DNA of 64,000 nucleotides, taken from Bacillota bacterium (lineage in GTDB: Bacteria; Bacillota; Dethiobacteria; DTU022). Under the pieces are notes generated by a model. That model was not told the origin of the DNA. It saw nothing but the letters and a program-made list of their open reading frames with translations, and did not search any database. Shown here piece by piece: positions 12,054 to 62,261 of the stretch; within the stretch, counting starts at the first letter, position 1; each line of letters opens with the position of its first letter. Made by a program: the position numbers and the translations under genes. Where the stretch lies: contig JAUWPV010000002.1 in assembly GCA_030611385.1 (NCBI GenBank), forward strand, positions 15,433-79,432, read 5' to 3'.

Positions 12054-12147
12054 GGGAGTAGTTAGCGGCCTGGTGGCGCTCCTGGACTTCAAATCCTGTG
12101 GCAGGGCATCCCCCTGCGGTGGGTTCGATTCCCATCTACTCCCGCCA
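12054..12147 (+). tRNA. selC: tRNA-Sec (selenocysteine tRNA, anticodon UCA)
   Basis: 94 nt. 8-bp acceptor stem GGGAGTAG/CTACTCCC, 5-bp T-stem with a TTCGATT loop, anticodon loop CU-UCA-AA, 6-bp long variable arm GCAGGG/CCCTGC, discriminator G and CCA end. Confidence 0.8.
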
Positions 12148-30915: not shown

Positions 30916-32754
30916 TTAATTGTTCCGGAAGGGCAGGGCATTAACAAAAATATCCTGAAAATCCGGGCGGGTGGAAAGTTCCAGATGTTCAACTTTTTCT
31001 GGGGTAGTCAGCGCCCTGGCCCGCACCGCTTTTGAAGCAAGGGCCATTTTCGATCCGTCACCGGCTGCGTTACCAACGGCAATAATTTTTTCCGGCGGTA
31101 GTTGGGGCAGTAGTCCAATAGTTAGAGCGCTTTCTTTACGCACATAGTTGCCGAAGGCGCCGGCTAACAGGACCTGATCAAGATCGTTTTCACTGATGCC
31201 GGCCTCCTTTAGCAGAATCATCAGGCCGGCGTAGATTGCCCCCTTAGCCAGCTGTAGTTCGCGTAGATCGCCCTGGGTTAGCACCAGATCATCACCGGTT
31301 TCAGATTTAGCACCGGGAACGAGAACAAATTCAAAGCCGCCCGGGCCGCGCCGCAGCCGATCCTTAAAGCAGGCGGGAACCTCATCCGGGTTTTCCTCCG
31401 GGTTGATAAAACGGCCGCTTGGCTCGATTAAGCCGGCATCGAGCAGCGCGGCGGCAGCGTCGATCAATCCCGAACCGCAGATGCCGCAGGCCGGAGTATT
31501 GCCAATAATACTCAGCTCGATATCACCATTAACGTAGCTGACCGCCTCGATCGCTCCAGCTGCGGCTCGCATACCCTGTTTGATCTGCGCTCCCTCAAAA
31601 GCAGGGCCGGCTGCGGTTGAACAGGCCGTTAGTTTGCCGTTTGCAACCAGCACCAGCTCGCCGTTGGTACCAATGTCGATTGCCGCGCAGATGTCCCTGC
31701 GCCGGTCCATATTCGTGGCCAGAATCACTCCGACGGTATCAGAACCGATATAACCGGCTATATTTGGTAGAAAAACTACTCTTCCCGCAGGGTTTATCTT
31801 TAACCCAAGTTCGGAGGCCTCCACATCCAGAGCCCGGCTGTAAGCAGGAATAAAAGGCGCGGGAGCCAGGTAGGCTGGGTCTACGCCCATAAAAAAATGA
31901 CTCATCGTTGTATTGCCGACGATGACTATTTCATAAACATGATCACGCGCAATTTTAGTTTGTCTGAGTAGATCCCTGATAATCTCGTTTGCGGACCCGA
32001 TCACTTTATCCTGCAGCTGTTTTAAGCCGCCTTTAACCTGGGAGGCGTGAGTGATCCGCGAGATCACATCGGCGCCGTAAATGTTTTGAGGGTTGGTAGC
32101 CGCTGCTACCGCCAGAACCGCAGCCGTTTTTAAATCGAGCAACGAACCGACGATCGTGGTTGTTCCGATATCGAAAGCGATTCCGTATAGCTGGTCAGTA
32201 GTATCGCCTGGTTCGATCGAGATAAGTCGGCTTCCACTGATGACCACAGTTACTGAAAAGCCGTTATTTCTCAGCAGGGCGGGTAAACCCGCAAGTTCGC
32301 GCAGGTTAACTGTAAGGTTCGGGCGATCCAACTTTATGAGCAGCCTTTCTAAGTCGGCCACCTGGTCTTTAAGCGCCGGTAGGTCCAGTTTGACTGCTAT
32401 TTTTTCCACGAACGGTTCTGCCTCAAGGTTTTCCACTCCACCGGGCATAGTTGTTTTTCGGGTGTAGGCGTCTCTTTGCAGAGGCACTTCAACAACACAA
32501 TTCTGTTCAACTTTCCTCGTGCAGGCCAGCACCCAGCCGGCTTTCAGTTCACTGTCTGATAGCTGTTCTTTTTCGGCGTCCGTGGGGTCGCCGCGGTTTC
32601 CTTCGATAACCTTTACCCGACACTTGCCACAGGTGCCCTTGCCGGCGCAATCTCCTTCAACATATAGGCCAGCCTGGTCAGCTGCTTTAAGTAAATTTGT
32701 TCCGCTTTCAACTTCGATTAATTTGTTTTGGGGGATAAATTTAACTTTAAGCAT
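30916..32754 (-). CDS. RACo/AcsV-like reductive activator of corrinoid enzymes (N-terminal plant-type [2Fe-2S] ferredoxin domain plus ASKHA ATPase/DUF4445)
   Basis: 612 aa. N-terminal CAGKGTCGKCRV...C ferredoxin motif followed by an ASKHA-fold domain typical of RACE proteins. Confidence 0.7.
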   Translation of the reverse strand: MLKVKFIPQNKLIEVESGTNLLKAADQAGLYVEGDCAGKGTCGKCRVKVIEGNRGDPTDAEKEQLSDSELKAGWVLACTRKVEQNCVVEVPLQRDAYTRKTTMPGGVENLEAEPFVEKIAVKLDLPALKDQVADLERLLIKLDRPNLTVNLRELAGLPALLRNNGFSVTVVISGSRLISIEPGDTTDQLYGIAFDIGTTTIVGSLLDLKTAAVLAVAAATNPQNIYGADVISRITHASQVKGGLKQLQDKVIGSANEIIRDLLRQTKIARDHVYEIVIVGNTTMSHFFMGVDPAYLAPAPFIPAYSRALDVEASELGLKINPAGRVVFLPNIAGYIGSDTVGVILATNMDRRRDICAAIDIGTNGELVLVANGKLTACSTAAGPAFEGAQIKQGMRAAAGAIEAVSYVNGDIELSIIGNTPACGICGSGLIDAAAALLDAGLIEPSGRFINPEENPDEVPACFKDRLRRGPGGFEFVLVPGAKSETGDDLVLTQGDLRELQLAKGAIYAGLMILLKEAGISENDLDQVLLAGAFGNYVRKESALTIGLLPQLPPEKIIAVGNAAGDGSKMALASKAVRARALTTPEKVEHLELSTRPDFQDIFVNALPFRNN

Positions 32755-32816: not shown

Positions 32817-32891
32817 TGGTGCGCCCGCAGGGATTCGAACCCTGACTTCAGGCTCCGGAGGCCTGCGTGATATCCCTTTCACCACGGGCGC
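32817..32891 (-). tRNA. tRNA-Arg (anticodon CCG)
   Basis: 75 nt on the minus strand. Acceptor GCGCCCG/CGGGCGC, anticodon arm CAGGC-CUCCGGA-GCCUG, T-loop TTCGAAT, discriminator A plus CCA. Confidence 0.8.
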
Positions 32892-33094
32892 CTGGCACTT
32901 TTGAACAATGCCATAATAACATCAAGCCCCGGTCAAGTCAAACCGGAAAAGCGCCAGAAGTGATTCTCTTTCCCATCTCACAATCAGCAGAAGCAATTAA
33001 AGGCGCCTGTCCCCCGATCGATTTTGATTTGAACGAGGGGCATAAACTGATTTCCCGGGCAGGAAAAGACAGGATCAGTATGGAATTAAATTTA

Positions 33095-33133
33095 AATGCG
33101 CCGTAGGAAGGGCTTTTCGTGGCGCATTTTATT
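33095..33133 (+). promoter_or_regulatory. Terminator-like hairpin AATGCGCC-(18 nt)-GGCGCATT plus T-run immediately 5' of the RBS of the M16 peptidase operon; possible attenuator
   Basis: 8-bp stem plus TTTTATT, ending 6 nt before GAGGAGG. Follows a roughly 200-nt ORF-free leader. Confidence 0.35.
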
Positions 33134-33151
33134 AAGTGAGGAGGTTTGGTT

Positions 33152-34459
33152 TTGCCGGAAGAATATTTGTACCACTATTTACCTAATGGAATCAGGTTAA
33201 TCTTTATGCCGATCAAGAAGTTTAAAACAATTTCGATGGGATTATTCTTGCATCAGGAGCTGACCCCGGAAGTTGCTGCTGCAAATGCTCTCCTGCCGGC
33301 AGTACTCGAACAGGGCAGTCGGCTCTACCCCGATTATCTGACCCTGCAGCGGGAACTTGAAAACCTCTACGGTGCCGAATTGGACACAGATATCATTAAA
33401 AGCGGTGAACGACATATTCTTGCCTTTACTCTGGAAATGGCCCATAACCGTTATTTAGGAGAAAATGACAGACTGTTGCGTAAAGGAATGTCCGTTCTCG
33501 GTTCGGTGGTTAGTGATCCGCTCGTCATCGATGGTTCTTTCAGGGAAGATTATGTGGCCCAGGAGAAGACCCAGTTGATTAAAGATATCAAAGCGCTGCT
33601 TAACGATAAAGCAGCTTATGCCCTTGAACGCTGTCTGGCTTTGATGTGTGCGGAAGAGAGATTTGGCATCAACAAACTTGGCCGGGTCGAAGATTACAGG
33701 TCGATTGGTGCGGACAGGTTATACAGCTATTATCAAGATCTCTTCTTGCACAACCCCATTGATTTATATGTCATTGGTGACCTGGAAGAAGAAGAGGTAG
33801 TCAGTGCAGCCGGTGATCTGTTTAACTTTACCCACAACGTAGAGGGGAAAGCACTTCCTGAAACTGAGATTATGCAACAGGTTTCGGAAGTAAAATTAAG
33901 TGAAGAAGCGATGACTGTCAATCAGGGCAAACTGGTCCTTGGTTTTCGCACCTATACTGGTTACCAGGACGAGCTGTACTGTTCACTGCTCGTATACAAC
34001 GGTGTATTAGGTGGGTTTCCGCATTCCAAGCTCTTCATGAAGGTACGGGAAGAAGCGGGTCTGGCCTACTATATTAATACCCGTCTGGAAAGGCACAAGG
34101 GGCTTATGGTTATGACGGCCGGAATCAATTATGCAGATTACCAAAAGGTGCGGAAAATCATCGATCGTCAGCTTGAGGATATGGCCTCGGGGAAAATCAG
34201 TGATGTCGAACTCGACAATACCAGGCGAGGCCTGATCAACCAGCTGCGTTCTCAACAGGACAGCCCTAACCAGCTGATCGCTGTTCACCTTGACGGTTCT
34301 GTCGGAGGTAAAACGTATACCATTGAAGAACTCAGCGCCGGTATTGACGCGGTTGGGCGGGAAGAGGTTATGGCTGCAGCCGAACGGGTTAAACTGGATA
34401 CGGTTTACCTGCTGCGGCCCCGGGAAGGAGAAATGGAAAACAATGGCTGTTCACTGTAA
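33152..34459 (+). CDS. M16-family (pitrilysin/insulinase-like) peptidase subunit lacking the HxxEH zinc motif (non-catalytic partner type)
   Basis: Start taken at the in-frame TTG 7 nt after GGAGG. Peptidase_M16 N and C domains; no HxxEH. Confidence 0.6.
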   Translation: MPEEYLYHYLPNGIRLIFMPIKKFKTISMGLFLHQELTPEVAAANALLPAVLEQGSRLYPDYLTLQRELENLYGAELDTDIIKSGERHILAFTLEMAHNRYLGENDRLLRKGMSVLGSVVSDPLVIDGSFREDYVAQEKTQLIKDIKALLNDKAAYALERCLALMCAEERFGINKLGRVEDYRSIGADRLYSYYQDLFLHNPIDLYVIGDLEEEEVVSAAGDLFNFTHNVEGKALPETEIMQQVSEVKLSEEAMTVNQGKLVLGFRTYTGYQDELYCSLLVYNGVLGGFPHSKLFMKVREEAGLAYYINTRLERHKGLMVMTAGINYADYQKVRKIIDRQLEDMASGKISDVELDNTRRGLINQLRSQQDSPNQLIAVHLDGSVGGKTYTIEELSAGIDAVGREEVMAAAERVKLDTVYLLRPREGEMENNGCSL

Positions 34460-35750
34460 TTTGATTGAGAATGGTGCTCTGCAGGAAACTCTTTATTACT
34501 ACCGGCTTTACCCGGGTTTGGATCTCTATGTTTTGCCTAAGCCGGGTTACTATAAAAAATACGCCATTTTTTCGACCCGCTTCGGATCAATCGATAACCG
34601 CTTCCGGGTGGAAACGGGAGGGGAGATTAGCATAGTGCCGGATGGGGTGGCTCATTTCCTCGAGCATAAACTTTTTGAAGACGACCGGGGTAATGTCTTT
34701 GACCGTTTCGCCGCACTTGGGGGTTCGGCCAATGCCTTTACCTCTTTTACACAGACTGCTTACCTCTTTTCCTGTACTGCTAATTTTGAGAAAAACTTTC
34801 AGCTGCTGCTCGATTTTGTACAGGAACCCTATTTTACGGAACAAACAGTACAGAAAGAGCAGGGGATTATCGGTCAGGAGATCAAGATGTACGAAGATCA
34901 CCCGCACTGGAGAGTCTTTTTTAACCTGCTGGAGGCGCTTTACCGTGAGCATCCGGTACGCAATGATATCGCCGGTACAGCGGAAAGCATCGCCATGATT
35001 ACCCCGGAACTTTTGTATCGCTGTTATAACACCTTCTATCATCCCAGCAATATGGCTCTCTTTGTAGTTGGGGATTTGACGCCGGACGATGTGAGCCGAC
35101 AGGTGGAAGCGAACCTGGCTGGACGCGATTACCAGCCGATGGGCTCGATCGTGCGCATCTATCCGCAGGAACCGGCAGAGATAACCAGAGATCGCACGGT
35201 CCAGGAACTGGTAGTTTCCGAGCCGATTTTTTTCCTTGGGTTTAAAGATATGGTTGTGGAGAAATTGGCTGGGCGGGATCTGATGCGCCGGGAAATCCTG
35301 ATGGAACTGGTTCTTGATATCATGTTTGGAACCAGCGAAGCGCTCTACAATGATCTCTATCGCGACGATCTGATTGACATAAACTTTGGAGCGGAATATA
35401 CTGCCGAAAACAACTATGCCTATACCATGATCGGTGGCGAAACGAAGGAACCCGAGCAGCTATATCAAAGGATTATGGAGACGGTGCTTAAAGCTAAAAA
35501 GGAAGGGATCACGTCAGAGCAGTTTGAGCGCCACCGCCGTAAAATTTTGGGAGGTTATATCAGACGATTCAACTCGCTTGAAGTTATTGCCAATAATTTC
35601 CTGGCATACCGTTTTAGGGACACGGATCTTTTCGAACTGCCGTCAATCCTACATGAAATCAGACGTGAAGAGGCCATCGCTTTGATTGAGGAAAACTTCG
35701 AACCGGCCCGTCATGCCGTTTCCCTGATTCTGCCTCAGGCGGACGGGTAG
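34443..35750 (+). CDS. M16-family zinc peptidase (HFLEH zinc-binding motif present)
   Basis: Start at MAVHCNLIENG, overlapping the upstream stop. HxxEH motif at VAHFLEHKLFE. Confidence 0.7.
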   Translation: MAVHCNLIENGALQETLYYYRLYPGLDLYVLPKPGYYKKYAIFSTRFGSIDNRFRVETGGEISIVPDGVAHFLEHKLFEDDRGNVFDRFAALGGSANAFTSFTQTAYLFSCTANFEKNFQLLLDFVQEPYFTEQTVQKEQGIIGQEIKMYEDHPHWRVFFNLLEALYREHPVRNDIAGTAESIAMITPELLYRCYNTFYHPSNMALFVVGDLTPDDVSRQVEANLAGRDYQPMGSIVRIYPQEPAEITRDRTVQELVVSEPIFFLGFKDMVVEKLAGRDLMRREILMELVLDIMFGTSEALYNDLYRDDLIDINFGAEYTAENNYAYTMIGGETKEPEQLYQRIMETVLKAKKEGITSEQFERHRRKILGGYIRRFNSLEVIANNFLAYRFRDTDLFELPSILHEIRREEAIALIEENFEPARHAVSLILPQADG

Positions 35751-35861
35751 CTTACAGTAAAATTCAGTAAAACCCCGAAGGTTGATTTTTATTTTAGGTC
35801 AGGTTAAAATAGGACCATTGAGGTGCACATAACTGTGCACAGGGCAACAGGAGGCCTGACC

Positions 35862-38483
35862 ATGAGCAACAACTACAGTATGTATGTAAACCCGCATTTA
35901 GGCGAGATGCTCGAAAGCATCAAACTCGATCAAAAATATGTGCGTGGCGAAGGTTGTCACCTTTATGATGTTCAGGGTAACCGCTACCTTGACTGTATCG
36001 CTGCTTACGGCGCACTGCCCTTCGGGCATAACCCCGAACTGATCTGGGAAGCGATTAATGATTTTCGTAATTCCGGTGAACCCAGCTTTATCCAGCCGTC
36101 TGCATTGGAAGCCGCGGGTGAATTGGCTCGCCGCCTGATCGAGGTTGCGCCGGAAGGTCTCGAATATGTTACTTTCGCTAACAGCGGCGCCGAAGCAGTT
36201 GAAGCGGCGATCAAACTCTGCCGATCCGCTTCGGGCCGTCCCGGTATCCTCGCCACCGAAAACAGCTTTCACGGAAAAACTTTCGGTGCCCTTTCCGCTA
36301 CGGGTAATCCCGCCTACCAGTCGGTTTTTAATGCACCAGCTGAGCATTTTAACCATATTCCGTTCGGTGATGCTGCTGCTCTGGAAGAAGAACTCAAGGC
36401 CCGGTCCGATTATTATGCCGCGTTTATCATCGAACCGATCCAGGGTGAGGGCGGAATCGTCGAACCGCCTGTCGGCTACCTGCCCCGGGTAAAAGATATC
36501 TGTAAAGAGAACAGTGTACTTCTTATATTTGATGAAGTTCAAACCGGCCTGGGTCGCACCGGAAGCTTGTTTGCCTGCGAGCAGGAACAAGTTTCGCCTG
36601 ATGTTATGGTTCTGGCCAAGGCGTTAGGCGGCGGAATTATGCCTATTGGAGCCTGCCTCTGTTCGGCGGAAGCCTACAGCGAAGATTTCGGATTGAAACA
36701 TTCTTCAACCTTTGCCGGCAACTCTCTGGCCTGCCGGGTTGGCCTGAAAGTGTTGGATCTGCTTACCAACGACCACAGCGCCCTGCTGAAGAAAGTGCGG
36801 ATCAGGGGAGAACTGCTTAAAGCAGGTCTTATTGAACTGCAAAAAAAATATCCCTACCAGATCAAAACAGTTCGCGGACGCGGCCTGCTGCTTGGTCTGG
36901 AATTCAATATGGATCGCGATCATTTCCCGGGCAGCCTTCTGGGAGTTATGGCCGAACAGGAACTGCTTACTCCGGCCATTTCATCTTACCTGCTTAATGT
37001 GAAAAAAATCAGAGTTGCCCCCACCCTTAACGGCAATGCGATCATCCGCATCGAACCGCCCCTGATAATCAGTGAGGCGCAGTGCCGGGAAGCTCTCCAG
37101 GGGATAGATTCAATGCTGGAAGTTCTCGGTCAGGGCAGCACGGCGCGCTTTCTCTCTTACCTGGTTAGACCGCAAAACGAAGAAAATTATCCACCTTATA
37201 CTCCCTACCATGCTAAAAAAGTTGTACCCAGCGGAAAGCCGGAAGAGGGGCGTTTTGCCTTTCTGGTCCATGCTCTCGATTTGAAAAGTTACCACCAGTT
37301 TGACAACAGCCTGCTTGCTTTCAGCGACGACGAACTGGCCGAACTGACCGGCAAGTTTAATGGCCTGATTGAACCTTTTGTTGCCGGGAAAACAGTGATC
37401 AATTCGACTGCCGGCCGAAGCGCCTACGGTGAATTTATTGCTTTGTCCCGAACGACCGATGAATTTATTCAAATGCCGCGCAGCCAGGCTCTTGCTGAAC
37501 TGAAAGCAGCTGTTGCCCTGGCCCGTGAAAGAGGCGCTCGCATCGTTGGCCTGGGCGCTTTTACAGCTGTTGCCTCGATGGGCGGTCTTTACTTGAAGAA
37601 CGAGAAAATCCCCATTACCACCGGTAACAGCTATACTGTGGTTTCTGCAGTCGATGCCGTCACCACGGCTACTGATAAACTGCAGATCGATCGCTCGCAG
37701 ACAACTGCTGCCATTGTTGGGGCAGCCGGCTCAATCGGCCGGGGCATATCGCTGCTGTTATCGGAAACTGTGCCTCGCCTGATCCTGATCGGCAATCCAA
37801 ATAATCAAACTTCCAGTGACAGGTTACATTTGGTTGCCGCTGAAATTTACCGCTACCAGTCAGCACTTCTGAAACAGGGTCGAACCTTGAAGCCGGGCAG
37901 TATGGGTCACCTGCTTGCCGATTGCTCTGAGCTGCCTGCCCCTGATGCTACGATGGATGATTTTGAAGCATTTGTCGGCGGTGAAGGTAGTCGCAGAGGA
38001 CTGATCGGGTTTTCTACCGATATCAATGCTGTCCTGGCCAGGGCAGACATTGTGATCAGCGCCACCAGCGCAACCGAAAAAGTAATCCATGCCGGTAACC
38101 TGAAAACCGGGGCGATCGTCTGTGACATTTCCCGCCCGGCTAATGTCAGCGAAGAGGTCGACCGAGCCCGGCCAGACGTTTTGGTAATCGATGGCGGGGT
38201 GATCGAAGTGCCCGGCCTGCCCTCTCTCGGTTGGGATTTTGGTTTTGAAGAAGGCCTTGCCTATGCCTGCATGGCTGAGACAATGATGCTTGCTCTTGAG
38301 CAGCGTTACAAGCACCACAGTCTCGGGTCATCCGGAGTTAATCTTGAAACAATTCTCCAGACCAGGTATTGGGCAGCCGAGCATGGTTTTAAATTGGCAA
38401 ATTTCCGTAGTTTTAACCGTCCACTAAGCGAAGAAAGCTGGCAGAAACTGCTGCAAACCCGCCAGAAATTGGTTGTTCGCTAA
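35862..38483 (+). CDS. Two-domain fusion: N-terminal class-III aminotransferase (ornithine/acetylornithine/GABA-AT-like) plus C-terminal acyl-ACP reductase (AAR)-like NAD(P)H thioester reductase domain
   Basis: ATG at 35862 follows CAGGAGG. The N-terminal roughly 440 aa are AT-III. The C-terminal roughly 420 aa align with cyanobacterial AAR (FTTGNxxT, GAAGSIGRG Rossmann motif, catalytic-Cys region LAYACMAETMMLALE against AAR MFACFAEAMLLEFE). Confidence 0.6.
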   Translation: MSNNYSMYVNPHLGEMLESIKLDQKYVRGEGCHLYDVQGNRYLDCIAAYGALPFGHNPELIWEAINDFRNSGEPSFIQPSALEAAGELARRLIEVAPEGLEYVTFANSGAEAVEAAIKLCRSASGRPGILATENSFHGKTFGALSATGNPAYQSVFNAPAEHFNHIPFGDAAALEEELKARSDYYAAFIIEPIQGEGGIVEPPVGYLPRVKDICKENSVLLIFDEVQTGLGRTGSLFACEQEQVSPDVMVLAKALGGGIMPIGACLCSAEAYSEDFGLKHSSTFAGNSLACRVGLKVLDLLTNDHSALLKKVRIRGELLKAGLIELQKKYPYQIKTVRGRGLLLGLEFNMDRDHFPGSLLGVMAEQELLTPAISSYLLNVKKIRVAPTLNGNAIIRIEPPLIISEAQCREALQGIDSMLEVLGQGSTARFLSYLVRPQNEENYPPYTPYHAKKVVPSGKPEEGRFAFLVHALDLKSYHQFDNSLLAFSDDELAELTGKFNGLIEPFVAGKTVINSTAGRSAYGEFIALSRTTDEFIQMPRSQALAELKAAVALARERGARIVGLGAFTAVASMGGLYLKNEKIPITTGNSYTVVSAVDAVTTATDKLQIDRSQTTAAIVGAAGSIGRGISLLLSETVPRLILIGNPNNQTSSDRLHLVAAEIYRYQSALLKQGRTLKPGSMGHLLADCSELPAPDATMDDFEAFVGGEGSRRGLIGFSTDINAVLARADIVISATSATEKVIHAGNLKTGAIVCDISRPANVSEEVDRARPDVLVIDGGVIEVPGLPSLGWDFGFEEGLAYACMAETMMLALEQRYKHHSLGSSGVNLETILQTRYWAAEHGFKLANFRSFNRPLSEESWQKLLQTRQKLVVR

Positions 38484-38544: not shown

Positions 38545-40017
38545 GTGGAGCAAAAAGCCGGGCATGAGAAAACAGCACAGGACAAAGATTTCGTTAAAGA
38601 AATAACCCCGAAAGCAGTTGACTATTCGCAGTGGTACATCGACGTAATTTTAAAAACAAAAATGATGGATTACTCCCCGGTGAAGGGCTTTATGGCTATC
38701 CGTCCCGCTGGTTTTGCCATATGGGAAAAAATACAGGAGTTAATGGACAGGCGGTTTAAGGAAACCGGGCATCAGAACGCTTACTTTCCGCTTTTAATTC
38801 CACAAAGCCTGCTGCAGAAAGAAGCTGAGCATGTTGAGGGGTTTGCTCCAGAATTAGCTTGGGTGACTAAGGGAGGTAGCGAAATTTTAGCCGAGCCGTT
38901 GCTGATCCGCCCGACTTCGGAAGCAATTATTTGCGACTTTTATTCGCGCTGGGTTCAATCTTGGCGCGATTTGCCGATTTTGATTAACCAGTGGTGCAAT
39001 GTTGTGCGGTGGGAGAAATCGACCAAGCCATTCCTGCGCACTTCTGAGTTTTTATGGCAGGAAGGTCATACCTGTCACCGTACCGAGGAGGAAGCGGAGG
39101 CAGAAACCCTTCAAATACTCGAGATCTACCGGGAGTTTTTAGAAACAGAAATGGCCATACCGGCGATTGCCGGACGTAAATCTGAACGTGAGAAATTCGC
39201 CGGTGCGCTGCGCACCTATTCTGTAGAGGCCCTGATGAGCGATGGTAAGGCTCTACAGGCAGGAACCTCCCACAACCTGGGTCAGCATTTTGCCAAAGTA
39301 TTTGATATTACTTTCCTCGATCAGGACGATCAGCTAAAACATGTCTGGCAGACCTCCTGGGGTGTTTCGACCAGACTGATCGGCGCTCTGATCATGGTTC
39401 ACGGCGATGACCGCGGTTTAGTGCTCCCGCCGCGCATGGCTCCAATCCAGGTAGTGATCGTTCCAATCTTGACTAAAAAGGACCGGGATCGTGTTTTAGA
39501 AGCGGTCAGTGAACTGTCCGCTAAGCTGAAAGAAGATCTCCGGATCAAGCTGGATGACCGTGAGGAATACTCGCCGGGGTGGAAATTTAACGAATGGGAA
39601 ATGCGGGGCATTCCGGTCCGTATAGAAGTGGGCCCCCGTGATCTTGATAAAAATCAGGTTATTCTTGTCCGCCGGGATACCGGTGAAAAAGAGGTCATCC
39701 TGCGTGGCGAACTGTCTGCACGCCTGCCACAGCTGCTCGAACAAATTCAGAGCGATATGCTGAAGCGGGCTCTTGAATTCCGCGAAGCAAATACCCGCTG
39801 CTGTTCCGATTATGAAGAGTTCAAGAAGATAGTAGAGGAAGAACGCGGTTTCGTTATAGTGTCCTGGTGTGGTGATGCTGCCTGTGAAGAAAAGGTGAAA
39901 AACGACACAAAGGCGACTATCCGCTGCATCCCCTTCGATAAAAAGCCTGAAAGCGATCAGTGTATCGTCTGCGGCCAAAAGGCTGTTGCAACCGCTTATT
40001 TCGCCCGGGCTTACTAA
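38545..40017 (+). CDS. proS: Proline--tRNA ligase, archaeal/eukaryote-like type without a cis editing domain and with a C-terminal Zn-binding domain
   Basis: 490 aa. Class II motifs and C-terminal CxxC...CxxC; no INS editing insertion. Confidence 0.85.
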   Translation: MEQKAGHEKTAQDKDFVKEITPKAVDYSQWYIDVILKTKMMDYSPVKGFMAIRPAGFAIWEKIQELMDRRFKETGHQNAYFPLLIPQSLLQKEAEHVEGFAPELAWVTKGGSEILAEPLLIRPTSEAIICDFYSRWVQSWRDLPILINQWCNVVRWEKSTKPFLRTSEFLWQEGHTCHRTEEEAEAETLQILEIYREFLETEMAIPAIAGRKSEREKFAGALRTYSVEALMSDGKALQAGTSHNLGQHFAKVFDITFLDQDDQLKHVWQTSWGVSTRLIGALIMVHGDDRGLVLPPRMAPIQVVIVPILTKKDRDRVLEAVSELSAKLKEDLRIKLDDREEYSPGWKFNEWEMRGIPVRIEVGPRDLDKNQVILVRRDTGEKEVILRGELSARLPQLLEQIQSDMLKRALEFREANTRCCSDYEEFKKIVEEERGFVIVSWCGDAACEEKVKNDTKATIRCIPFDKKPESDQCIVCGQKAVATAYFARAY

Positions 40018-40133: not shown

Positions 40134-40712
40134 ATGACCAAAAGGGAGCTTCGCAGGAAGATCATTGAGCTGCGCGATCAGCTGTCTCCTGAAGAAATAA
40201 AGGGGAAAAGCCGCCGTCTAGCCGAGAACCTCTACAGCTTATCCGCCTACCGGGAAGCCAAGGTGGTTATGTTTTTTATCTCTTTCGGTAGTGAAGTTGA
40301 TACCAGGGTGATGCTCGAAGAAACAATCCGCCGAGGCAAGCTGGCGCTTGCCCCGAAAGCTTTGCCGAAAACCCGCGAACTGCTTCCCTCACAAATTCTC
40401 GACTGGGATCAGGATTTAGCTCCGGGTGCCTATAACATACCGGAACCACGGGAAGATAAGGTCCGTCCTTATACTCCCGAAGCGATCGACCTGCTGCTCG
40501 TCCCCGGTGTTGCTTTTGACCAAAAAGGAAACCGCCTTGGTTACGGAGGCGGTTATTATGATCGTTTTTTTCCCCTGCTAAAACCGACAACCCCGCTGGT
40601 TGCCCTGGTTTTTGATTTGCAGATTCAACACAGGGTTCCGGTTGACGAATGGGATCGCCGGGTTGACTTTATTATCACCGAGGAACGAATTATCAAAAGC
40701 AAGCAGGGTTAA
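40134..40712 (+). CDS. 5-Formyltetrahydrofolate cyclo-ligase
   Basis: 192 aa. The GYGGGYYDRF motif is characteristic of 5-FCL. Confidence 0.8.
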   Translation: MTKRELRRKIIELRDQLSPEEIKGKSRRLAENLYSLSAYREAKVVMFFISFGSEVDTRVMLEETIRRGKLALAPKALPKTRELLPSQILDWDQDLAPGAYNIPEPREDKVRPYTPEAIDLLLVPGVAFDQKGNRLGYGGGYYDRFFPLLKPTTPLVALVFDLQIQHRVPVDEWDRRVDFIITEERIIKSKQG

Positions 40713-43129: not shown

Positions 43130-44947
43130 TTGTATGAAAAACATCTAATGATTTGTGGAGCCACGGGTTGTATTTCATCAGGTTCGCGCTCGGTTGAGCA
43201 GGCCCTGGTTAAAGAACTCGAAAATCATGGCATCAGAGATAGATACCGTCTGGTCATGGGTGGTTGCCCCGGATTTTGTGAGGTAGGGCCTATTCTGGTG
43301 ATCTACCCGGATGAAGTTTTCTACTGCCACCTGACACCGAAAGACATGGTCGAACTGGTTGAAAAGCACCTGGTCGGCGGTGAGATTGTTGAACGGCTGC
43401 TCTACAAGGGTCCGGATGTTGCTGTGCCGGTTCGCTTCTACGATTCAATTCCTTTCTATGCCAAGCAGAAATTCAATGTTCTGCACAACAGCGGCATCAT
43501 TGACCCGGAAAGCATCGATGAGTATATAATGCGCGGTGGTTACCGCGCTTTTACACGCGCCCTGACTATTGATTCGCTGACAATTTGTGAAGAAGTTAAA
43601 GAGTCTGGTCTGCGTGGTCGCGGAGGCGCTGGATTTTCGACCGGTCAGAAGTGGGAATTCACCAATAAGGCTCCCGGACCGAAAAAGTATGTTGTCTGTA
43701 ACGCTGATGAAGGCGACCCAGGGGCATTTATGGATCGCAGCATTCTCGAAGGCGATCCTCATGCTATACTCGAAGGGATGCTGATTTGCGGCCGGGCTAT
43801 TGGTTCCAACGAAGGCTATATCTACTGCCGGGCTGAATACCCTCTGGCCATAAAAAGACTGAAAATCGCCATTAGCCAGGCCTTAGAATACGGCCTGTTG
43901 GGAGAAAACATACTCGGTTATGGCTTCAACTTCAAGATCAATATCAAGGAAGGGGCCGGCGCTTTTGTTTGCGGTGAAGAAACCGCTTTGCTTGCTTCGA
44001 TTGAAGGCAAGAGGGGTATACCCCGCCCGCGTCCGCCATTTCCGGCTCAGTCCGGTCTTTTTGGTAAACCGACTACGATCAACAATGTCGAAACCCTGGC
44101 CAATATTCCCCTGATCGTCAGGGAGGGCGGTGCGGCCGAGTTCGCGCAGATTGGCACAGCGGGCAGTAAGGGCACGAAAGTGTTTGCCCTGGCTGGAAAG
44201 ATTCGCAATACCGGGCTCTGCGAGGTGCCGATGGGCATTACTTTCAGGGAGATTATCTATGATGTCGGTGGAGGAATTAAAGGCGGACGGGAATTCAAGG
44301 CAGTTCAGGCTGGGGGCCCGTCGGGTGGATGTATTCCGACAGAACTGCTTGATTTGCCGATTGATTACGACTCACTGAATAAAGCCGGAGCGATCATGGG
44401 TTCAGGCGGCTTGGTGGTTATGGATGAAAGTACCTGCATGGTTGATCTGGCCCGTTACTTTTTAAGCTTCACACAAAAAGAATCATGCGGCAAGTGCACA
44501 CCCTGTCGTGAAGGAACCATGCGCATGCTCGAGATTCTGAACCGTATCACCGGGGGTTTTGGTAATCCGGAAGATCTTGATACTCTCGACAGTCTGGCGC
44601 ACAGTATCAAAGACAGTTCTTTGTGCGGTCTCGGACAGACCTGTCCAAACCCGGTCTTGAGCACGATCCGTTATTTCAGGCACGAATACGAAGAACATAT
44701 TGAAGAAAAGTACTGCCGTGCCGGTGTCTGTAAGGCGCTTTTCAGCTATAAAATTGATCAGGAGCGATGTACCGGCTGCAGGGCTTGTGTGAAAGCCTGT
44801 CCTGTTGATGCAATCACGGGCGAGAAAAAGGAACCTCATGAAATTGATCAGGGGCGCTGCACCCACTGTGGCAGCTGTATTGAAAAATGCCGACAGGATT
44901 GCATTCTGATCACTCGCGTAGGGAGGGAAGCCGATGTCAGCAATTAA
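43130..44947 (+). CDS. NuoF/FdsB/HndC-like NAD(H)-binding flavoprotein subunit (N-terminal Trx-like [2Fe-2S] domain plus FMN/NADH domain plus C-terminal 2x[4Fe-4S])
   Basis: 605 aa. GxGxxG FMN/NADH motifs, SLBB domain, C-terminal CxxCxxCxxxCP pair. Confidence 0.8.
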   Translation: MYEKHLMICGATGCISSGSRSVEQALVKELENHGIRDRYRLVMGGCPGFCEVGPILVIYPDEVFYCHLTPKDMVELVEKHLVGGEIVERLLYKGPDVAVPVRFYDSIPFYAKQKFNVLHNSGIIDPESIDEYIMRGGYRAFTRALTIDSLTICEEVKESGLRGRGGAGFSTGQKWEFTNKAPGPKKYVVCNADEGDPGAFMDRSILEGDPHAILEGMLICGRAIGSNEGYIYCRAEYPLAIKRLKIAISQALEYGLLGENILGYGFNFKINIKEGAGAFVCGEETALLASIEGKRGIPRPRPPFPAQSGLFGKPTTINNVETLANIPLIVREGGAAEFAQIGTAGSKGTKVFALAGKIRNTGLCEVPMGITFREIIYDVGGGIKGGREFKAVQAGGPSGGCIPTELLDLPIDYDSLNKAGAIMGSGGLVVMDESTCMVDLARYFLSFTQKESCGKCTPCREGTMRMLEILNRITGGFGNPEDLDTLDSLAHSIKDSSLCGLGQTCPNPVLSTIRYFRHEYEEHIEEKYCRAGVCKALFSYKIDQERCTGCRACVKACPVDAITGEKKEPHEIDQGRCTHCGSCIEKCRQDCILITRVGREADVSN

Positions 44948-61945: not shown

Positions 61946-62261
61946 TTCTTGCGCCAGAATCGGTTTTATGCTATCATTTTTATAGAGGCAGCTTGATAAT
62001 TACGAGCTTAGCCCTGCTGTGTTCGTGACAACCGATTAAGTTTTGAGCTAACACTTTTTATATGGGAACCCGTACTTCAGCTGCAGCGTAGCAGCCTTTG
62101 TAAAGAGGACCTATAAACCAGTTGAGAAGGTACCCACCTTTCGGGGGAACAGTTCAAAACAACGGCCCACGGCACGGCGGGGTTTTTTAATGCCTTTCAG
62201 CGTGTTATAAACTGAGTTGTTTAACCGTGATTGTCTTGTTTTATGCAGGGAGGTGAGAGCA
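61946..62261 (+). promoter_or_regulatory. 316-nt ORF-free structured leader upstream of mgtE ending in a GC-rich hairpin plus GGGGTTTTTT; possible Mg2+-responsive attenuator (M-box not confirmed)
   Basis: Position upstream of mgtE, GC-rich inverted repeats, and a terminal T-run (about 62170-62190). Confidence 0.3.

Follow-up and report, generated by a model that had tools for sequence, protein, structure and literature searches.

Bifunctional enzymes that join a class-III aminotransferase to a thioester reductase (TR) have been described from two pigment pathways. PtTamH, which serves the tambjamine YP1 pathway of Pseudoalteromonas tunicata, has its transaminase (TA) at the N-terminus and, at the C-terminus, a TR that resembles acyl-acyl carrier protein reductase (AAR) and carries a GxxGxxG motif and a catalytic cysteine (PMC9594044). 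Together with TamA, a protein made up of an adenylation domain and an acyl carrier protein (ACP), it converts fatty acids to amines from TamA-loaded acyl-ACP, L-glutamate and NADH (PMC9594044). In PigE, of the prodigiosin MAP pathway in Serratia, the two domains stand in the order TR-TA; the protein has been shown to be both a thioester reductase and a transaminase, and a route from thioester through aldehyde to amine has been proposed (PMC8341465). Here we describe a related protein encoded in a 64,000-nucleotide stretch of the genome of a member of the Bacillota (contig JAUWPV010000002.1, positions 15,433 to 79,432), referred to below as the window. Judged by predicted domain order and fold, this protein is a TamH-type TA-TR bifunctional enzyme. 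The architecture as such is already known from TamH and PigE and is not new; the initial annotation of the stretch, whose author knew of no characterised example, was wrong on this point, as TamH has the same TA-TR order and PigE the reverse. What is new is how broad the family is, that it has repeatedly become fused to acid-activating modules, and that a conserved operator is present, accompanied in some lineages by a helix-turn-helix (HTH) gene. The Firmicute version, which is widespread, separately regulated and found in anaerobes, is likewise new here. The gene and its parts are as follows.

35862..38483, + strand: TA-TR fusion gene, 873 amino acids plus stop codon (open reading frame, translation, full-length homologues)
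35934..37115, + strand: class-III (omega) aminotransferase domain, residues 25-418 (Pfam PF00202)
37116..37241, + strand: poorly conserved interdomain linker, residues about 419-460 (identity to orthologues, pLDDT)
37242..38480, + strand: AAR-superfamily thioester reductase domain, residues about 461-873 (profile, PDB and structure-model matches)

The reading frame opens with the ATG at 35862, continues unbroken as far as the stop codon at 38481-38483 and is preceded, 7 nt 5' of the ATG, by the ribosome-binding site (RBS) AGGAGG at 35849-35854, so that a single polypeptide does join the two halves, as first described. A search of other genomes for the same fusion, suggested in the initial annotation, recovered full-length homologues (44-88% identical) in no fewer than 202 species-level genomes and among thousands of metagenomic proteins, and across Firmicute classes the fusion is kept at 50-60% identity. 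One cluster entry is 100% identical to the window protein and has a partial member labelled 'Clostridia bacterium', while an exact look-up of the protein on public contigs gave no record. Because the same full-length frame recurs in so many genomes, with no frameshift or stop between the halves, the fusion is not a sequencing artefact. The proposal that an assembly or frameshift error has joined two separate genes is refuted by these comparative data, the frame of about 870 residues being unbroken and the domain boundary conserved, and its probability is negligible.

The N-terminal half comprises a whole Aminotran_3 domain. Residues 25-418 match Pfam PF00202 over model positions 12-402 of 403 with an E-value of 1.8e-94 (317 bits against a gathering cutoff of 30.5). 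Lys253, in the sequence LAKALGGG (nt 36618-36620), aligns with K300 of the putrescine aminotransferase YgjG, which we take to be the lysine that binds pyridoxal phosphate (PLP). A D-E-x-Q-T-G motif is present, and in an alignment of 46 homologues K253, D224, E225 and Q227 are invariant. The best solved relatives of the domain are the TA domain of PigE (4PPM; 40% identity by Foldseek) and YgjG. Beyond it, residues 419-460 or so show 0-30% identity to orthologues, against 45-67% in the flanking domains, and pLDDT drops across them in the whole-chain AlphaFold model (pLDDT 87.5, pTM 0.84 overall).

The C-terminal half consists of an acyl-binding subdomain (residues 461-610) followed by a Rossmann subdomain with a GxxGxxG motif. 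Pfam returns merely a weak match of Shikimate_DH type. The TR half taken alone, in comparison, matches the long-chain acyl-ACP reductase model TIGR04058 with an E-value of 2.5e-21 (76.4 bits) and the N-terminal domain of the PigE model with 157 bits, and a phmmer search of the PDB returns PigE at 5e-23 and Synechococcus AAR (6JZQ/6JZU) at 7e-13; PigE is in fact the best NCBIfam and PDB sequence match for both halves of the protein. Matches to hemA in the Rossmann region are weak, the similarity being marginal. As the TA domain dominated the Foldseek search with the whole chain, the search was repeated with a model of the TR alone (AlphaFold2, pLDDT 87.2). The best hits are then the AAR structures 6JZU, 6JZY and 6JZQ (E 8e-20, target TM-score 0.74-0.76), followed by the terminal amidation domain (TAD) of carmabin biosynthesis at about 1e-16 and then by generic Rossmann folds from about 1e-4. 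The claim that this half is an AAR homologue is thus borne out by profile, PDB and structural matches alike, and it is not just a generic fold of the shikimate dehydrogenase kind. The TR is a distant homologue of AAR and not an AAR orthologue.

The motifs singled out in the initial annotation are also in place. The Rossmann sequence GAAGSIGRG supplies G620, G623 and G626 (residues 620-626, nt 37719-37739), and the catalytic cysteine, Cys803, lies in YACMAET (nt 38268-38270). C803, the three glycines and T586-x-G588-N589 are invariant in the 46 aligned homologues. In the phmmer alignment with the PDB, C803 stands opposite Cys294 of Synechococcus AAR, the residue named as catalytic in that enzyme (PMC9594044). 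By contrast with these fixed positions, a helical insert of about 60 residues in the Rossmann subdomain (residues 651-715 or so; window 37812-38006) is without a counterpart in AAR and PigE. Its length varies among orthologues, to which it shows 9-46% identity, and it is shorter in Chloroflexota and Limnochordales.

The distribution of the family bears directly on its chemistry. When 1.84 billion cluster representatives were surveyed by phmmer with the TR half, 2,780 matched at E <= 1e-3, 496 of them at E <= 1e-30, and the 150 best were classed with the TA and TR domains of the window protein and a probe combining fatty acyl-AMP ligase (FAAL) and ACP. The TA-TR arrangement is found in about 85 of these 150 nearest representatives, and at least 20 of the 85 or so are also fused to an AMP-binding module, which either precedes the pair (FAAL-ACP-TA-TR) or follows it (TA-TR-AMP-binding); each type was confirmed with Pfam in representatives. 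One protein of 2,624 residues (P0134) runs through AMP-binding, PP-binding, a class I/II aminotransferase resembling alpha-oxoamine synthases, a second AMP-binding and PP-binding pair, Aminotran_3 and TR. Public annotation labels proteins of this family 'class III aminotransferase' and misses the reductase half.

Comparison of 80 fetched loci (L-numbers below) gives the same picture at the level of gene order. A TamA-like adenylation-carrier partner, which is not found in the window, is fused to TA-TR in two Chloroflexota (L061, L063) and two Acidobacteriota (L072, L077), where AMP-binding, PP-binding, Aminotran_3 and TR form one polypeptide. In two further loci (L075, L079) it is an adjacent gene, with a separate FAAL-ACP directly upstream of TA-TR and an acyl-CoA-dehydrogenase-like gene downstream, an arrangement that reproduces the TamA/TamT/TamH triad. 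In L051 a gene for FAAL, ACP and ketosynthase domains (FAAL-ACP-KS) lies downstream of TA-TR. The FAAL-fused orthologue from Chloroflexota shares 56% identity with the window protein in the TA and 55% in the acyl-binding subdomain of the TR, and the stand-alone orthologues of Peptococcaceae are no closer to it. That TA-TR is physically coupled, time and again, to modules for carboxylate activation and to a carrier domain speaks more strongly than any other observation for enzymes that work from thioester through aldehyde to amine, on carrier-bound acyl groups.

One Acidobacteriota locus has a cluster-like set of genes around TA-TR (L075 7823-18736), and L072, L077 and L079 are similar. It comprises FAAL-ACP, TA-TR, the acyl-CoA-dehydrogenase-like gene, a 319-residue protein with a weak match to R2-like oxidases, an APH-type kinase, a FemAB/GNAT-like acyltransferase and an NAD_binding_4 reductase, a set that points to a lipid amine product which is N-acylated or tailored in some other way.

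We consider it probable that the window protein, too, is a TamH-type enzyme that takes an acyl-thioester through the aldehyde to a primary amine, and that it does so as a stand-alone, operator-controlled unit. By analogy with AAR, TamH and PigE, the acyl group would move onto Cys803 from a carrier that bears it as a thioester and is most likely phosphopantetheinyl, for instance acyl-ACP. NAD(P)H, bound in the Rossmann motif G620-x-x-G-x-x-G, would then reduce the acyl-enzyme and so free the aldehyde, whereupon the N-terminal class-III transaminase, with PLP on Lys253, would convert it to a primary amine at the expense of an amino donor. Having both domains in one chain would keep the reactive aldehyde local, and expression would be repressed through the palindromic operator described below. 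This is in essence the chemistry put forward in the initial annotation. It stands as the best-supported reading and agrees with the activity demonstrated for PtTamH (PMC9594044) and with the proposal made for PigE (PMC8341465). Which way the reaction runs, and on which carrier and acyl chain, is inferred only.

As to the substrate, a fatty acyl chain is the leading guess, if a tentative one. Fatty acyl-ACP is favoured because orthologues are fused to FAAL, because the TR is homologous to an AAR that was crystallised with a stearoyl group, and because in three unrelated lineages the fusion is directly followed by an aldehyde dehydrogenase (ALDH) of a particular class.

L047 12621-14093, L021 8464-9857 and L078 1-1028, directly 3' of the fusion: class-3, MdlD-like aldehyde dehydrogenase

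Such an enzyme could act as an overflow valve for aldehyde or could be part of a catabolic route. On the other side of the fusion, the two distant loci L037 (3482-4435) and L021 (4697-5638) carry, directly upstream, a gene for a protein of about 315 residues with the motif SLGSSKRNH near its N-terminus, for which no Pfam or NCBIfam match was found.

Several observations weigh against our preferred assignment. The window locus is without biosynthetic cluster context, and tblastn searches of the 64 kb found no acyl-AMP ligase (FAAL), carrier protein or acyl-CoA dehydrogenase (ACAD) homologue; the queries (efp, a FabG/YmfI-like short-chain dehydrogenase, acpP, FAAL-ACP, ACAD and the HTH protein) were all without matches, a weak negative in that the E. 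coli sequences among them were approximate. For the Firmicute members the assignment is one that we infer from homology. The TR falls short of the TIGR04058 equivalog cutoff of 449.7 with its 76.4 bits, and the PigE equivalog NF053554 gives 551 bits where its cutoff asks for 850, the swapped domain order splitting the match into three; with the protein below both the PigE and the AAR cutoffs, the substrate of neither can be transferred to it. The TA domain is about equally near to putrescine aminotransferase and to PigE, which leaves polar or polyamine substrates possible. Finally, PtTamH did not accept acyl-CoA in vitro (PMC9594044) and with purified PigE no change in the absorbance of NAD(P)H could be measured in vitro (PMC8341465), so that the biochemistry of the family is not straightforward.

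Some of the same observations would fit the opposite direction, in which the TA makes an aldehyde by deamination of a polyamine, an alkylamine or the like, in the manner of putrescine aminotransferase, and the AAR-like domain serves as an acylating aldehyde dehydrogenase that traps this aldehyde as a thioester. After PigE, the nearest solved or curated relatives of the TA are indeed putrescine aminotransferases, an ALDH gene directly follows the fusion in L047, L021 and L078, and inducible catabolic functions typically have such a lone gene controlled by a repressor-like operator of its own. Nonetheless, AAR, TamH and PigE, which are all the characterised enzymes of the AAR superfamily, are reductive without exception. 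In orthologues of about 50% identity, domains for carboxylate activation and a carrier form part of the same chain, which makes sense only in the thioester-to-amine direction, and the putrescine aminotransferase models are far under their cutoffs on this TA (317 against 612). A catabolic role is accordingly quite unlikely.

We regard as similarly improbable a forward reaction on a small polar housekeeping thioester, in which succinyl-, malonyl- or glutaryl-CoA would give gamma-aminobutyrate (GABA), beta-alanine or 5-aminovalerate in primary metabolism, with a logic like that of glutamyl-tRNA reductase (GluTR) and glutamate-1-semialdehyde aminomutase (GSAM). That the Firmicute-type gene is found without cluster context or a local loading module, and is kept at 50-60% identity across Firmicute classes as expected of a housekeeping enzyme, would suit this proposal. 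However, the acyl-binding subdomain of the TR is as similar to FAAL-fused as to stand-alone orthologues, and the ALDH that adjoins the fusion in three loci is of the class-3, MdlD or fatty-aromatic type. Medium or long fatty acids are the usual substrates of FAAL-type ligases, which also counts against a small thioester. A relationship of the TR fold family to GluTR, reflected here in the weak hemA matches, is again compatible with it and has been discussed before (PMC8341465).

The TamH-type assignment includes a regulatory element, which is located in the 111-nt spacer between the upstream gene ymfH (stop at 35750) and the start of the fusion.

35782..35810, + strand: promoter-like site TTGATT-17-TAAAAT of the fusion gene (consensus scan)
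35823..35840, no strand: operator-like palindrome GTGCACA-TAAC-TGTGCAC, between the promoter-like site and the RBS

The promoter-like site agrees with the consensus at 9 of 12 positions, which by itself is not above chance, and is plausible because it lies directly upstream of the conserved palindrome and the RBS. The palindrome is the sole match in the window, even with two mismatches allowed. In 29 loci the exact palindrome occurs once per locus of about 20 kb, each time just 5' of the fusion. In near-invariant form it lies at about -36 from the ATG of the fusion in L001-L036, L052, L062, L026 and L031, with invariant arms and a 4-nt spacer and flanks that drift. With one mismatch allowed it is also found at -36 to -50 in Halanaerobiales and Limnochordales, and it is absent from every FAAL-associated locus of other phyla and from the locus of Thermohalobacter berrensis. 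In the latter organism (L081 88-7797) the fusion comes just after a bacterial microcompartment locus with genes for shell proteins, PTAC, EutN, an acylating ALDH and an RnfC-like protein. A link between microcompartment and fusion was rejected, as a terminator-like hairpin and a 200-nt AT-rich spacer intervene and the context is not seen elsewhere.

In the Peptococcaceae-type loci a gene for a 188-residue HTH_3 protein directly precedes the fusion (L054 8325-8891 and 15 others, for example L042, L047, L059 and L067), and a variant palindrome, GAGCACA-N4-TGTGCAC, sits between the -10 element and the RBS of that gene. The protein has an HTH_3 motif at its N-terminus, and its C-terminal part belongs to no Pfam or NCBIfam family. 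From this arrangement it is a candidate autoregulated repressor. A reading of the palindrome as an RNA hairpin was rejected: its fold energy is no better than that of shuffled sequences (z -0.84), the arms never covary, and the Peptococcaceae form carries an uncompensated A.A mismatch. Since covariation, compensation and unusual RNA stability are all missing, a DNA operator for a dimeric regulator is preferred. The element looks like a repressor operator and is probably bound by an XRE-type HTH repressor of the kind encoded beside the fusion in Peptococcaceae; the window itself has no homologue of the 188-residue protein by tblastn.

Upstream and downstream of the fusion are three genes that call for comment.

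33146..34459, + strand: YmfF-family M16 protein (NCBIfam NF047422, 433 bits against a cutoff of 285; Pfam Peptidase_M16_C)
34443..35750, + strand: YmfH-family M16 peptidase (NCBIfam NF047421, 538 bits against a cutoff of 250)
38545..40017, + strand: proline-tRNA ligase of the archaeal or type-I form, proS (TIGR00408, 623 bits against a cutoff of 437)

The probable start of ymfH is the ATG at 34443, with the RBS GGAAGGAG, which overlaps the stop of ymfF; the longest open reading frame begins at 34290, and the NF047421 match starts at residue 63 of that long frame. The initial annotation had the fusion translationally coupled to the M16 pair. This did not hold: being 111 nt apart, with the promoter-like site and the palindrome in between, the fusion and ymfH are not translationally coupled. 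An operon with the M16 pair was rejected as well, in view of the same spacer and of the unrelated inserts found at this place in other genomes. In several genomes of the clade closest to the window ymfH and the fusion are separated by genes resembling fructose-bisphosphate (FBP) aldolase/phosphatase or GDP-mannose dehydratase, some of them on the opposite strand. Only in this clade (fusion identity about 60% or more) does the fusion adjoin ymfF-ymfH and proS, and there the whole block from the RACo gene to that for 5-formyltetrahydrofolate (5-formyl-THF) cyclo-ligase is syntenic. Within 10 kb of the fusion, ymfFH are absent in Dethiobacter, Halanaerobiales, Peptococcaceae and all non-Firmicute loci. 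The palindrome, in turn, is present in Dethiobacter (L026) and in L031, where ymfFH are not adjacent.

Upstream of ymfF there is a conserved motif of its own, AGGAAAA and ATGGAAT separated by 12-14 nt (window about 33000-33075; GGGCAGGAAAAG...TATGGAATTA), which recurs at the equivalent position in L005-L010, L022, L024, L029, L031 and L052. It resembles what we take to be a sigma-H-type promoter and would fit the spore-associated role reported for YmfF and YmfH of B. subtilis. The attenuator-like hairpin that had been described in the M16 leader does exist (33094-33129), as a stem of 9-10 bp followed by a T-rich tail, but it is no more stable than shuffled sequences (z -1.8) and is not conserved, being recognisable in few related loci (L006, L010); its reading as an RNA hairpin was rejected on the grounds of fold energy. 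The fusion, we conclude, is not functionally tied to the YmfF/YmfH pair and is a stand-alone unit in this genome.

These findings also bear on a possible role in the modification of elongation factor P (EF-P), in which the fusion would act with YmfF and YmfH from the position that ymfI has in B. subtilis and supply reductase and aminotransferase steps, compare YmfI and GsaB. The idea has some appeal, as the two upstream genes pass the NCBIfam equivalogs for YfmF and YfmH named 'EF-P 5-aminopentanol modification-associated', the B. subtilis pathway needs the class-III aminotransferase paralogue GsaB and the reductase YmfI and is incompletely assigned (PMC5885033, PMC13602936), and the gene directly downstream encodes a prolyl-tRNA synthetase. 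Against it, adjacency to ymfFH is restricted to one clade, is interrupted there in several genomes, and is lacking in Dethiobacter, Halanaerobiales, Peptococcaceae and all other phyla; the conserved palindrome tracks the fusion and not ymfFH, and ymfF has its own sigma-H-like promoter motif. Nor was an efp or ymfI-like gene found in the window by tblastn with the weak E. coli queries mentioned above, and the proposed 5-aminopentanol intermediates require no thioester reduction. The genes that the literature of 2018-2026 assigns to EF-P modification are GsaB, YnbB and YmfI, plus YaaO, YfkA and YwlG, and YmfF and YmfH are not among them; these have been tied instead to the spore inner membrane (PMC13393411). 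The 'EF-P' in the NCBIfam name seems to rest on association only. The EF-P link is therefore unsupported, and we think it very improbable.

Downstream, proS begins 61 nt past the stop codon of the fusion. A scan found no + strand terminator-like site between 38335 and 38961, and in the clade of the window proS may be co-transcribed with the fusion. No T-box or riboswitch leader was found for either gene in a search of the 64-kb window with Rfam at gathering thresholds. The search gave only three matches, a tRNA-Sec at 12054-12143 (70 bits), a 6S RNA at 62008-62187 (99.6 bits) and a tRNA at 32820-32891 (-); with a tRNA-Sec present, the organism evidently uses selenocysteine. Other genes around the locus encode a RACo corrinoid activase (30916-32754 (-)), 5-formyl-THF cyclo-ligase (40134-40712) and a NuoF-like flavoprotein (43130-44947), a set typical of anaerobic Firmicutes that resemble acetogens or syntrophs. 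The locus has its closest relatives in metagenome-assembled genomes from soda-lake sediment that are labelled Syntrophomonadaceae or Bacillota.

Collectively, the TA-TR design extends far beyond pigment pathways, to hundreds of species in at least five phyla, and often comes with its own acid-activating module. In its stand-alone Firmicute form it might constitute a regulated route outside any cluster, which would draw on housekeeping acyl-ACP, as AAR does, for free primary fatty amines or another thioester-derived amine, under an XRE-type repressor at GTGCACA-N4-TGTGCAC. This extended proposal is speculative and, taken as a whole, rather unlikely. If true, anaerobic and often alkaliphilic Firmicutes would have a class of amine metabolites, or of precursors for lipid head groups, that has so far gone unrecognised. 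The fusion does not by itself open a long-standing question. In the Firmicute subgroup there are cultured members (Thermohalobacter berrensis, with WP_120168306.1, Sporotomaculum syntrophicum, L047, and Dethiobacter), a conserved operator and sometimes an adjacent HTH gene, which provide a direct experimental handle on which amine these anaerobes make and when. For biocatalysis, the combination of TR and transaminase in one chain is of interest as a way from fatty acids to amines, and TamA and TamH are already exploited for this.

Among the known systems, TamH is the closest in design. Compared by its published description, it has the same order, an N-terminal class-III PLP transaminase followed by a C-terminal AAR-like TR, although it is longer (941 against 873 residues) and is encoded in a pigment gene cluster together with its loader TamA, whereas the window gene stands alone, with its own operator-like site and no cluster. 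The pairing of TamH with an adenylation-ACP loader and an acyl-CoA-dehydrogenase-like gene recurs in the orthologue loci L075, L077 and L079. PigE (4PPM, NF053554) has the reverse domain order, TR-TA, and the window is without pig cluster context. AAR (6JZQ/6JZU/6JZY) has in common with the window TR its two-subdomain fold, the aligned cysteine (C803/C294), GxxGxxG and a T-T-G-N motif, at about 22% identity. It is, however, a single-domain enzyme that passes its aldehyde to the aldehyde-deformylating oxygenase ADO, while the window TR is fused to a transaminase. The TAD of carmabin CarI (9E4S/9E4U) also has an AAR-like fold, with an invariant cysteine beside NAD(H) (bioRxiv 10.1101/2024.10.28.620694), and is 14-17% identical to the window TR. 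It stands at the C-terminus of non-ribosomal peptide synthetase modules, is proposed to make an amide, and has no fused transaminase. The logic is shared with the complex of GluTR (HemA) and GSAM (HemL), in which a cysteine-dependent thioester/ester reductase passes an aldehyde to a class-III PLP enzyme; unlike the fusion described here, GluTR and GSAM are two proteins, the first acting on a tRNA ester and the second being an aminomutase.

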